A stretch of DNA of 64,000 bases from Escherichia phage vB_EcoP_ShWW44. Shown here piece after piece: positions 124 through 61,578 of this stretch (its first letter is position 1; every line of letters starts with the position of its first letter). The notes under the pieces are model-generated. The model worked only from the letters and a program-made list of their open reading frames with translations, was not told the DNA's origin and ran no database searches. The stretch lies in sequence record PQ900156.1; one strand, given 5' to 3'. The position numbers were made by a program, and so were the translations under genes.

Positions 124-957
124 ATGCCAACTTTGAAAGTAGGTTTTAACAAAACCACTAATGTTGCAACTGTACTGGATGCAGGTGGTTCTATTCCAGG
201 TGGTTCCGTAGAAGTAGGTACTTTTGTACACCCGGATGCCACTTACCCTGATAGCTTAGTTATCTATCATGGAGTTCGTGATCTGTTGTATAAACGCTCT
301 GCTAAAAACCCTGCTGAAGAAGGCTTCTGGCCTAATAACATCGTGGATATGCAGTCTATCTCTATTGATATGAAAGCTACTCCACGACTGACTGTCGCTA
401 CCAAACTGTCTCGTGTAGTCTCCGCTATCGAAGGTGAAGACATTAACTGGCATGTTGATGTAGCAGGTGGTAAAGCACCATTTACTTATAAATGGCAATT
501 CAAAGTTGATACCGTTGGTGCAGCATTCGCTGATATTAGTTCCAGTACTAACCCATCTGCTGCTACTGCAACGCTGACTCTTAAAGACATAACAGCTGCT
601 TCTGCTGGTACTTATAAAGTGATTGTTACTGATGCTAATGGAACCACTGTAGAAGATGAGTCACTGCTGGCTGTAGGCTATTACGAAGCAAGCTCCCTGG
701 TAGCTACTCCTGCTTCACTGGCTCTGTCTGTTGCTGACGATCTTGCTGCTGGTAAAACCGTAACCATTGCTGCTATGCCTGTTGGTTCTTCTGCTGGTAC
801 TTTGTCTATCAAGACTGCTCCAGATTCTGCTCGTGCTACGGCTACCATTGCTGGTAACGTACTGACAGTTAAACCAGTGGCTGCTGGTGAAGCTACTTCT
901 GTAGTAGTTACCAATGGTACGGTCGATGTAACTATCCCTGTTACTGTTGCAGAATAA
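124..957 (+). CDS. Ig-like (Big_2-type) repeat protein, probable capsid decoration protein (N4 gp17-like by position)
   Basis: ORF track 79..957; start moved to ATG 124, which has GAGGA 8 nt upstream; Thr/Ala/Val-rich beta-repeat composition; lies first in the middle block as in N4. Confidence 0.55.
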   Translation: MPTLKVGFNKTTNVATVLDAGGSIPGGSVEVGTFVHPDATYPDSLVIYHGVRDLLYKRSAKNPAEEGFWPNNIVDMQSISIDMKATPRLTVATKLSRVVSAIEGEDINWHVDVAGGKAPFTYKWQFKVDTVGAAFADISSSTNPSAATATLTLKDITAASAGTYKVIVTDANGTTVEDESLLAVGYYEASSLVATPASLALSVADDLAAGKTVTIAAMPVGSSAGTLSIKTAPDSARATATIAGNVLTVKPVAAGEATSVVVTNGTVDVTIPVTVAE

Positions 958-979
958 GGGTATCCTTTTTTGGGGTTAT

Positions 980-1005
980 AGCCCTCCTTAGCGAGGGCTT
1001 TCTTG
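980..1005 (+). terminator. intrinsic terminator
   Basis: AGCCCTC-cttagc-GAGGGCT hairpin followed by TTTCTT. Confidence 0.6.
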
Positions 1006-1024
1006 TATCTATAGGAGAGTAAAA

Positions 1025-1339
1025 ATGGCGCAAAAATTGCGTGTATGGCACATTCCCCAAGTGCCAATGAAGGCATTTCAAGTAGAGACTAATAGTCTTC
1101 AGGAAGCTGTTAAGATTAAGAATGCGTTAGCAGATTATGATCTATTCCAATATGAGAACAATGTCAAAGGCGATTATGCTAATGCTAACGGTATTGAGAT
1201 GTGGGATGAGACTATCTCCGATCAAGAACTAGTGGAGATGGGTTTAGAAGACCGTTGGGTAGATTGGTATATTGAAACTGAAGATGGTTTCTTTGATGAC
1301 CCAGAAGAGTATCTGAATTATCTAATCAAGCAAGTATGA
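1025..1339 (+). CDS. hypothetical acidic protein (104 aa)
   Basis: ORF with AGGAGAG RBS; Asp/Glu-rich. Confidence 0.6.
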   Translation: MAQKLRVWHIPQVPMKAFQVETNSLQEAVKIKNALADYDLFQYENNVKGDYANANGIEMWDETISDQELVEMGLEDRWVDWYIETEDGFFDDPEEYLNYLIKQV

Positions 1340-1385
1340 TTGCTTTATTTGGGGTTATAAACCCTGAAATGAAACCCTCAAGTTT

Positions 1386-1415
1386 GACCTCCCTATTAAA
1401 GGGAGGTCTTTTTTT
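1386..1415 (+). terminator. intrinsic terminator
   Basis: GACCTCCC-tattaaa-GGGAGGTC hairpin followed by TTTTTTT. Confidence 0.7.
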
Positions 1416-1440
1416 GACTTAAACATTCTGGAGCCGGGAA

Positions 1441-1653
1441 ATGTATAAAGAGATTGCATTCTTCTCATTCTTACTTGGTGGTTTAATAGGTGCAGGATTT
1501 GTAGCTATTTCTAATACCTACTTTGGTTCTACTCCAAACTCTGTAACTCAAACCCTCAAGCATGAATGTGAATTGAATATCCCTCGTAATCAAAAATGTG
1601 TAATGCAGTTCGTACCGGAGAAAAATGAATATCCACAATCTACGTTTGGTTGA
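1441..1653 (+). CDS. small membrane protein (70 aa, one N-terminal TM helix)
   Basis: Hydrophobic segment FFSFLLGGLIGAGFVAI. Confidence 0.45.
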   Translation: MYKEIAFFSFLLGGLIGAGFVAISNTYFGSTPNSVTQTLKHECELNIPRNQKCVMQFVPEKNEYPQSTFG

Positions 1654-5862: not shown

Positions 5863-6211
5863 TTGTATGGGCTGGACTTAAGTAAGCTAGAACAAACAGC
5901 AATGCTTACTTTAGGTAAAACTATCCATGACCAAGTGGAGAATGAAAATGTATTAGATCTTTACACAACAATGCAGGTTCTTGTTCAAAAAGATGGACTA
6001 CTAGCAGACCTTTTCCTTCATACATTCCCCCAGAACCGCATCTGAAATCTAAGGTAGACCGTATCATAGATAAGTTCTGGCTTAGCCCGTGTTATGACGA
6101 AATGCATCTTTACTTGGCTCAAATACAAAAGAATCCTTATACCAAAGATGTATTTAAGGGTAAGAGTACTACTCACCACTACCCCTGGTATAGAAGAGGT
6201 AGCAAATACTA
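5863..6211 (+). pseudogene. possibly frameshifted gene: ORF 5863..6045 continues in another frame to 6211
   Basis: Frame of 5863..6045 stops at 6043-6045; an ATG-less open frame runs 5946..6211 and ends overlapping the next start; homopolymer CCCCC at about 6026-6030 lies in the overlap. Confidence 0.3.
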
Positions 6212-7834: not shown

Positions 7835-7839
7835 ACCTA

Positions 7840-7866
7840 AGACCTCCTCCGGGAGGTCTTTTTTTG
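7840..7866 (+). terminator. intrinsic terminator
   Basis: GACCTCC-tccg-GGAGGTC followed by TTTTTTT. Confidence 0.7.
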
Positions 7867-8598: not shown

Positions 8599-8625
8599 GC
8601 AACATTTAATCTGGAGAGTAAATAA

Positions 8626-22456: not shown

Positions 22457-22491
22457 CAAACAGGAGTCTTTCTTTGGTTTGAAGGACTCCT
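22457..22491 (+). other. 10-bp stem-loop downstream of primase gene, no T-tract
   Basis: AGGAGTCTTTC/GAAGGACTCC-type stem with 8-nt loop; not followed by a U-run, so terminator function is doubtful. Confidence 0.3.
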
Positions 22492-22511
22492 AAATTAAAT
22501 GAGGAAAAATA

Positions 22512-25907: not shown

Positions 25908-25977
25908 GGTCGGGGTAGCACGTAGGCATGTGCAGAAGGTCGCTACTTCTCTCGCTGGTTCGAATCCAGCCCCTGAC
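25908..25977 (+). tRNA. probable tRNA (isotype unresolved; anticodon loop read as GTCGCTA)
   Basis: 7-bp acceptor stem GTCGGGG/CCCTGAC, D-stem GCAC/GTGC with GG in loop, perfect stem AGAAG/CTTCT, T-arm GCTGG-TTCGAAT-CCAGC; TATAAT element just upstream; variable loop only 3 nt. Confidence 0.45.
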
Positions 25978-26433
25978 CTACTGACATCCTATCAATGAGT
26001 ACATTAGGCTAACGTGCGGAGGTTTACACTGTAGCCGGTGTAGGTGGAGAAGACGGCAGGGTAGCTACCTGTGCTTAGTGTACTCTTTGATAGTTTTCGT
26101 AAGCGATTATGCGGTTTTTTAGAAATGAACCAATAACATAAATGCAAACGATGATGTTGTTCTGATGGCGGCGTAATAGCCTGTAAGTCAGCAAGGTCTT
26201 CCTATTCCTTGTAAATAAATTCGGCGCAGTGGCCCGCTGTAATTAATAATGGGCACACAACAGGTAAGAGCATTGGGTAATGTCAGCCTTGGTTCGAAGT
26301 CGAAAGACATGCGGTAATACCCAGCCAAAGTTCCAGTGCTCTTTCCGTTGTGGAAATGCAAGCACAACAAGTCCAGACGATATCTGAGTGACTTTAAAAA
26401 CAGATGGAGCCAGGTGGAATCCCTGGCAATCTA

Positions 26434-61407: not shown

Positions 61408-61578
61408 ACTTATCTCGCTACAAAGTTATGTCTATTAAAGAAGATTCTTTTCTTGGGGTGAGTTACCCCTTGAAGAAACGATACCATACAGTTACACTTT
61501 AGTCATGATATAGAAAAAGTTCATGATACTAAATAGTATGTAATGTTCCGATGACCCTATTCCCAAAAGGAGTAACCT

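Follow-up and report, generated by a model that had tools for sequence, protein, structure and literature searches.

A short direct repeat around an accessory-gene cassette of Escherichia phage vB_EcoP_ShWW44, a probable recombination joint

The gp17-gp17.1 locus and its repeated 12-mer

The sequence analysed here, called the window, comprises 64,000 nucleotides (nt) of Escherichia phage vB_EcoP_ShWW44 (PQ900156.1). Our subject is a 12-mer, TTTGGGGTTATA, that stands on both sides of a small accessory gene near the left end of the window. Judged by its sequence, the window belongs to a G7C-like N4-type coliphage of the genus Gamaleyavirus, Schitoviridae. Its first 3 kb match St11Ph5 at 95% and many other G7C-like N4-type phages at 88-93%. 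The whole corresponds to St11Ph5 positions 8445-72444. The locus contains a gp17-like, a gp18-like and a gp17.1-like gene (Table 1), and it adjoins the two genes for the subunits of RNA polymerase II (RNAPII), on their right. We call the interval between gp17 and gp17.1 the slot. It holds gp18 in the window and is empty in many relatives.

The gp17-like protein matches immunoglobulin (Ig) domains of Pfam weakly, under the curated cut-offs. The gp18 protein is 100% identical to that of St11Ph5, and 61-64% identical to gene 17 of P22 and of the P22-like phage L. Homologues are also present in Vi1-like phages; this is a widely travelled gene.

The 12-mer occurs exactly twice in the window, at 969-980 and 1348-1359 on the + strand, and both copies are intergenic. 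The original prediction, made from the letters alone, was right about the two copies. Its coordinates (966-977 and 1347-1358) were off by 3 and 1 nt. The upstream copy begins 11 nt past the TAA (955-957) of the gp17-like gene, and its last base is the first base of a terminator hairpin (980-999). The downstream copy begins 8 nt past the TGA (1337-1339) of the gp18-like gene, with a terminator hairpin (1386-1408) 26 nt further on. A terminator-like stem-loop is predicted near each copy. The original prediction was also correct in taking the pair as no coincidence and as part of regulatory-looking intergenic DNA. The direct repeat reaches 15 nt at 14 of 15 positions (966-980 and 1345-1359), with a spacing of 379 and the consensus CTTT(T/A)TTTGGGGTTATA. 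Around the two copies, the similarity stretches to 15-20 nt.

Table 1. Features of the gp17-gp17.1 locus in window coordinates
Feature	Position	Strand	Remarks
gp17-like Hoc-like/Ig-domain capsid decoration gene	124..957	+	Open reading frame (ORF); orthologues annotated in both St11Ph5 and N4; flanks the slot on the left
Weak hairpin h1, AAGGG-TAT-CCTTT	956..968	+	Over the gp17 stop codon; read from sequence
Upstream repeat copy TTTTTTGGGGTTATA	966..980	+	12-mer at 969-980; left joint of the cassette
Terminator-like hairpin tA, AGCCCTCC-TTAGC-GAGGGCT then TTCTTG	980..999	+	First element of the cassette
Segment present, absent or replaced among Gamaleyaviruses	981..1359	+	tA, ribosome-binding site (RBS), gp18, linker with copy 2; 379 nt, register arbitrary within the repeat
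gp18, P22 gene-17-like 'superinfection exclusion' protein	1025..1339	+	Slot cargo; Pfam PF17420 GP17, E=5.8e-45
Hairpin h1(B), AAGCAA-GTATGA-TTGCTT	1328..1345	+	Across the gp18 stop codon; RNAfold
Downstream repeat copy TTATTTGGGGTTATA	1345..1359	+	12-mer at 1348-1359; conserved copy
Stem-loop h2, GGGGTT-ATA-AACCCT	1351..1365	+	5' arm and loop supplied by the 12-mer; RNAfold
Intrinsic terminator h3, GACCTCCC-TATTA-AAGGGAGGTC and T7	1386..1415	+	Hairpin 1386-1408; predicted; common to gp18-bearing and empty-slot phages
gp17.1-like small gene	1441..1653	+	ORF; right neighbour of the slot; its start is the right-hand anchor for distances

Alleles of the slot among relatives

A BLAST search with window positions 850-1500 (651 nt) divides the Gamaleyaviruses into two groups. 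One covers the whole query, and the other covers 43-44% of it in two pieces. The spans of the short pattern add to 272-273 nt, and 651 minus 379 is 272. Among the matches listed, at least 21 Gamaleyavirus genomes have the short pattern and 8 the long one; the majority lack the cassette. We read the junctions in 13 distinct short-allele sequences, including ECBP1, Bp4, PhAPEC5, PhAPEC7, UE-S5a, 24-32N, Mimir124, K57alpha1.2 and several metagenomic contigs. All 13 have a single copy of the motif, which joins the left flank of copy 1 to the right flank of copy 2 (AACCCTGAAATGAAACCCTC..., h3). The junction reads gp17-TAA..TATCC(C)TT(A/G)-TTTGGGGTTATA-AACCCTG.... From the gp17-end anchor to the gp17.1 start there are 487 nt in the window and 109 nt in the empty-slot phages. 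The difference, 378, departs by 1 nt from the repeat spacing of 379, and this discrepancy sits in the T-tract. The one hybrid copy in the short allele, together with the match in size, means that a presence/absence polymorphism of tA, the RBS, gp18 and the linker has its limits at the two copies.

Chance was one alternative. Exact direct repeats of at least 12 nt within 400 nt number 8 in the window against about 1.7 expected from first-order (dinucleotide-frequency) random sequences. Other matches to TTTGGGGTTATA with 1-2 mismatches are at chance level (9 against 5.7 expected), and the two inspected (11718 and 12020) lie inside a coding ORF. So the argument that a 12-mer repeated within 400 bp is improbable in itself is weak, and a pair without common origin or role would agree with these counts. 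However, a polymorphism of 378-379 nt, seen in more than 20 genomes, has its ends at the two copies. Their similarity is 15-20 nt long, and related T-rich-GG-TTA strings stand at both positions across three genera. It is the position and the comparative evidence, not the repeat length, that make the pair non-random. Given the junction structure of the empty-slot genomes, we leave next to no probability to coincidence.

The slot can also carry another gene. In HK2 (locus L081, 1376-1534), an unrelated ORF of 52 amino acids (aa) takes the place of gp18. It has no Pfam match. Its homologues, 63-83% identical, belong to Klebsiella (BUCT_49532-like) and Salmonella (Shemara) phages of other families. 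The HK2 flanks are like those of the window, with the motif-like TTGTGGTTATA, tA and the RBS ATAGGAGAGTAAAAATG on the left, and TGATTGCTTTATTTGGG... / TGATTGCTTTATTTGGGTT... on the right. Likewise, gp18 exists in two sequence types, with differing C-termini and right-flank versions. ST4 and NAN33P5 have identical left flanks and different types of gp18 and right flank. Four alleles are thus found between common flanks: empty, gp18 type I, gp18 type II and the HK2 ORF. These states are scattered on the neighbour-joining trees of both flanking genes. In NAN33P5 (L018) we also observed that the gp18 TGA is changed to TTA. The ORF continues through the motif and stops at the TAA inside TTATAA, and GGAGTT replaces GGGGTT, which leaves a mismatch in the small stem.

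The records of Enquatrovirus (N4) among the matches listed all extend into gp18, and none has the empty pattern. In this genus, the upstream and downstream positions share little sequence. The lack of the empty pattern fits the repeat model, and it could equally be a single historical event. We also considered that the motif travels with gp18. This was rejected. Gene 17 of P22 has its own, different terminator and no motif, so the slot flanks are a property of the recipient lineage, not of the gene. Only about 5 further relevant loci came from scanning viral and metagenome contigs, most of the 50 metagenome matches being unrelated terminators.

A second variable slot was observed at window positions ~1416-1423, directly after the terminator 1386-1415. 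In Bp4, IME11, K57alpha1.2 and one metagenomic contig, it contains a gene for a predicted membrane protein of 86 aa with its own terminator (L003 1386-1766, L006 1765-2145). This gene sits between the terminator T-run and the ribosome site of gp17.1, where the window has only TTAAACAT.

A breakpoint can be located in the window itself. In a three-way comparison, positions 816-973 agree with the empty-slot phage Bp4 at 12 of 12 informative sites, and the last 100 nt of gp17 are 100% identical to Bp4. From 981 onward, the window is like the gp18-bearing St11Ph5. The switch occurs between 973 and 981, within GGTTATA. Two histories fit. A window-like ancestor gave rise to the Bp4-like phages by deletion between perfect repeats, or an empty-slot backbone regained the cassette via the motif. 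The motif is the joint under either history.

These comparisons suggest that the two copies of TTTGGGGTTATA are probably the core of a short imperfect direct repeat flanking a 379-nt accessory cassette, and that this repeat serves as the recombination joint of the gp17-gp17.1 slot. If the two copies recombined with each other, or a lone copy recombined with either member of the pair in a co-infecting relative, the cassette would be removed, restored or replaced and one copy would be left. The route may be homologous or microhomology recombination, or replication slippage, between linkers of ~15-20 nt. The downstream copy would be the ancestral element under selective constraint. It would consist of the T-tract and, from the stem-loop GGGGTT-ATA-AACCCT, the 5' arm with the loop, and would lie before the terminator in the 3' untranslated region. 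Most likely, this element would act in the transcript as a stem-loop for 3'-end stability or termination context. The upstream copy would be a partial, normally degenerate look-alike, made identical in this genome by a recombination event.

Several points weigh against this explanation. All the empty alleles share one junction, which fits recurrent deletion mediated by the repeats and, equally well, one ancient deletion that homologous recombination in the flanks has spread. The repeats offer no more than 12-15 nt of homology, and 10-11 of 12 in other gp18-bearing phages, which is short for a RecA-type exchange. The 12-mer is strongly conserved in the empty-slot phages, which implies a role beyond that of a scar. 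Finally, covariation in the hairpins is not significant: two pairs have two-sided changes, a number equalled or exceeded in 151 of 500 shuffles.

Conservation of the two copies and rival explanations

The two copies are not equally conserved. Among the gp18-bearing relatives examined, only the window has the perfect 12-mer at the upstream position. In the rest it is degenerate: TTTGTGGTTATA in St11Ph5 and PE007, TTCGTGGTTATA in IME11, TTTGTGATTATA in ST4 and NAN33P5, (A)TTTGGTTATA in PGN829.1 and U1G, (A)TTTGGTTAAA in AN24P2 and Jgk1, TTTGGCTAAA in Moo19 and TTATGAATGTA in N4. On the other hand, the downstream 12-mer has a mean pairwise identity of 98.7% in the 13 empty-slot phages. In the same set, the value is 95% for the h3 stem, 84% for h1, 82% for the third codon positions of gp17 and 75% for the h3 loop. 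The downstream copy is conserved well above the neutral level, and some function there, as RNA stem-loop, processing site or promoter element, is possible. Under the original prediction's own refuting condition, absence from orthologous positions in relatives, the upstream copy does not hold up.

The downstream copy is part of a row of three tandem hairpins, h1, h2 and h3, predicted by RNAfold with z-scores of -4.6 to -5.4. In the 13-sequence alignment, 97% of the cells pair over the three hairpins. For h2 alone it is 100%, with no two-sided changes. In the empty-slot relatives, h1 has perfect stems of 6 bp (TAAGGG/CCCTTA, TAAGAG/CTCTTA or TAAAGG/CCTTTA). The pairing of h1(B) differs by lineage, with GCAAT-CCTG-ATTGC in the ST4/Moo19 type and AAGAA-GTAAT-TTCTT in N4. 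Gamaleyavirus, Moo19 and Jgk1 all keep the h2 stem GGGTT/AACCC, and N4 has a shorter one, GGGT/ACCC. The h2 loop varies (ATA, GTA, GATAA, AATAA, GAGCA, GAAA, TAACG). The hairpin tA follows gp17 in all the gp18-bearing Enquatrovirinae examined, including N4 and Moo19, and is missing from the empty-slot phages. PhAPEC5 and PhAPEC7 carry a terminator annotation on h3. An intrinsic terminator has a G+C-rich hairpin with a T-run directly behind it. The 12-mer is not itself one, as the T-tract comes before h2, and GAAATG after it.

At 1359-1381 of the window, AAACCCTGAA and AAACCCTCAA form a repeat at a distance of 13 nt. Either of them could be the partner of the GGGTT arm, so that alternative stem-loops are possible. 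Contig L015 and UE-S5a have a changed distal copy.

The original prediction proposed a repeated regulatory motif, such as a middle promoter, a processing site or a protein-binding element. Our searches do not support it, since the upstream copy is unconserved and intergenic DNA is not enriched in the motif. TTTGGGGTTATA occurs nowhere else in the 64 kb, and it is not among the words enriched in the intergenic DNA of the window phage, St11Ph5 or N4. Genome-wide searches with up to 2 mismatches, with core sub-words and with looser patterns of a T-tract plus GG returned chance counts or matches in coding DNA. The 7-mer enrichment test retrieved the T-runs of terminators, the GGAGAGTAA ribosome site and the GCTCCGC loop of the early promoters; the motif was not retrieved. 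The weaker TTTGGTTT variants reported at 7860 and 22475 turned out to be unrelated. One, at 7863, is the T-run of the terminator 7839-7860. The other, at 22473, makes up the loop of another stem-loop, of 11 bp. TTTGGTTT has 8 occurrences against 3.2 expected, and the remaining six are outside the listed intergenic gaps.

One regulatory reading is a promoter. The motif would be an element for the N4-type RNAPII, with initiation in or next to the T-tract, each copy driving the next gene and h2 acting as a 5' leader or as part of a hairpin-type promoter of the kind reported for LUZ7. The N4 RNAPII promoters have a minimal AT-rich element at -7..+2 (PMC4496689), which the T-tract CTTTATTTG loosely fits, and this polymerase initiates preferentially at T (PMC9163698). 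The LUZ7 middle promoters are hairpins with stems of at least 6 bp and loops of 3-4 nt, ~15 bp upstream of the start (PMC9163698). The 6-bp stem and 3-nt loop of h2 are loosely like them. Each copy precedes genes of the middle-gene region, the downstream one is highly conserved, and T-rich-plus-GG strings also stand behind the hairpin promoters of the virion polymerase at the left end of St11Ph5. Nevertheless, the ~28 kb of rightward genes contain just two copies, and the motif is missing from the other intergenic regions. At the orthologous site, relatives do not conserve the upstream copy. Transcripts would meet terminator hairpins after 1-26 nt, the h2 loop has 4-5 nt in the ST4/Moo19 lineage, and the GGGG core is not AT-rich. 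No sigma-70 promoter-like site was detected in 958-1024 or 1340-1440. The literature searched gave no data on transcript ends or start sites for N4 or G7C-like phages. We consider this reading unlikely.

A broader version takes the T-tract and the small stem-loop (3-5-nt loop), often after a stop-codon hairpin, as a new recognition element of the Enquatrovirinae transcription machinery. It could be a hairpin-type middle promoter, or a pause or attenuation signal for the two-subunit RNAPII, which binds only single-stranded DNA. This element would double as a recombination linker. If true, it would let accessory genes be swapped with ready-made expression signals. We give this proposal a low probability.

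RNA processing is the other regulatory candidate, and a quite improbable one. RNase E or an enzyme like it would cut the U-rich single strand that lies between two stem-loops (h1 and h2 or tA), and so divide the messages of gp17, gp18 and the genes downstream. The architecture of hairpin, U-rich linker and hairpin is present at both copies, and the downstream copy is conserved. UAUUUGG looks like the classical sites of RNase E, for example that of RNA I, and like the loose RN|WUU rule. However, many AU-rich strings satisfy the RNase E consensus, which is very loose. In the empty-slot phages only 3 nt separate h1 from h2, the upstream copy is unconserved, and the predicted terminators on both sides would already set the transcript ends.

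Other identities were tried and rejected. A leader peptide or attenuator was suggested by a 17-codon ORF (1369-1419) and a weak Phe_leader match, and its ATG is not conserved in relatives. A palindrome for a dimeric DNA-binding protein does not agree with the spacing of the arms, which is 3, 4 or 5 nt by lineage. This variable spacing favours a hairpin over a fixed double-stranded protein site or operator. A transposon target-site duplication and an integron attC do not agree with the cassette, in which neither a transposase or integrase nor terminal inverted repeats are present. The attC consensus is GTTRRRY, and GTTATAA does not fit it. No family of Rfam 15 reached its gathering score; the best were Phe_leader (24.9 against 55 bits) and CRISPR-DR63 (26.8 against 37 bits).

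Some observations concern other parts of the window. The 11-bp stem-loop AGGAGTCTTTC-TTTGGTTT-GAAGGACTCCT at 22462-22493 separates the gp43-like stop from the gp44-like start, and no T-run comes after it. Its N4 counterpart, CAGTCCTTTTC-TTGGTT-GAAGAGGACTG, has the same loop core and inner stem, and its outer stem is altered on both sides, which points to a conserved structured element. At 61446-61472, between the leftward late and the rightward right-end genes, a small GGGGT-GAGTT-ACCCC hairpin stands behind a T-rich tract, similar in shape to the downstream element as it is in N4 (TTTCTTGGGGTTAACGACCC). The extended ribosome-binding string GGAGAGTAA is present at 1013-1024, 2420-2431 and 8611-8625, where it precedes the starts of gp18, the gp24-like ATPase gene and the rIIA-like gene. 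The window has one tRNA-Ala (anticodon CGC) at 25908-25979, in a ~1.7-kb stretch poor in ORFs (25.5-27.2 kb). Matches resembling sigma-70-type promoters number 19 in the window's 1-20 kb, against 44.4 expected from shuffled sequence, and 18 against 35.7 in 20-40 kb. This deficit over positions 1-40000, to less than half of the shuffled value in the first of these intervals, suggests that host-promoter-like sequences are avoided.

Comparison with known systems

We read the repeat described here as the linker, or boundary repeat, of an accessory-gene slot, and as a case of the ordinary shuffling of phage genes at short repeats. The Gamaleyavirus literature searched gave no description of this slot. 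The slot shows at base resolution a case in which accessory genes enter, leave and replace one another at a defined site in N4-like phages. Its cargo is an anti-exclusion or exclusion gene of the P22 gene-17 type, or an unrelated ORF known from Klebsiella and Salmonella phages. As a natural and evidently tolerated insertion site, the slot may be useful for engineering G7C-like therapeutic phages. Isolates that bear gp18 and a perfect repeat may yield 379-bp deletion variants. The conserved downstream stem-loop is a reasonable first target for mapping transcript ends, as the middle promoters of this group are poorly defined.

Deletions between short direct repeats are classical in lytic phages, as in T4 rII and T7, and nearby hairpins favour them. 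The slot behaves alike: the long allele has two repeats, the short one has a single repeat, and the deleted length equals the repeat spacing. On the other hand, its polymorphism is evolutionary, extends across natural isolates and includes a replacement allele (HK2). Moreover, the retained copy is probably under selection and would not be a mere substrate.

The lambdoid morons are extra genes with their own transcription signals between conserved genes. Like them, gp18 is accessory, has a foreign affinity (P22 gene 17 family, PF17420) and its own terminator, and is patchily present between conserved neighbours. Unlike them, it has no recognisable promoter of its own, and its flanks belong to the recipient lineage.

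The hairpin promoters of N4-like phages include those of the virion RNA polymerase and the LUZ7 middle promoters (PMC9163698, PMC6027278). The former have a stem of 5-7 bp and a loop of 3 nt, whose central base on the template strand is a purine (PMC6027278, PMC4496689). In the empty-slot phages, h1 and h2 likewise have 6-bp stems and 3-nt loops, with adjoining T-rich-plus-GG strings. However, they lack the GC-TCC-GC loop context of four early hairpins of St11Ph5. The slot hairpins are outside the early region, their loops have 3-5 nt, and the T-tract stands before the hairpin instead of after it. The h2 loop is ATA (TAT, central A, on the template strand), and the conserved loop context of the virion polymerase promoters is not found there. 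The four St11Ph5 hairpins (xGC-TCC-GCx), each followed by T(A/T)TTGG, are at ~85-105, 885-937, 1154-1188 and 5957-6009 of that genome (L001), to the left of the window. The one of these four that stands upstream of the RNAPII subunit gene reads TTTTGGTTATTA and is superficially like the motif.

Finally, the PeSL (promoter-early/stem-loop) cassettes bring about the shuffling of modules in T4-like phages (Arbiol et al. 2010, PMC2839356; Comeau et al. 2014, PMC4122927). They differ from the slot in having a strong sigma-70 promoter, of which none is detectable here, and in their number, ~50 per genome against two copies at one slot. The homology at the slot is much shorter, only ~15-20 nt, and its phage uses its own polymerases for the region. 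The likeness lies in the arrangement. In both, a plastic region has small non-essential genes set between conserved intergenic sequences that include a stem-loop terminator, the endpoints of indels and replacements between close relatives fall in these flanking sequences, and unrelated genes are swapped while the flanks stay the same. The slot would thus extend the idea of linker-mediated modular shuffling from the T4-like phages to the Schitoviridae.

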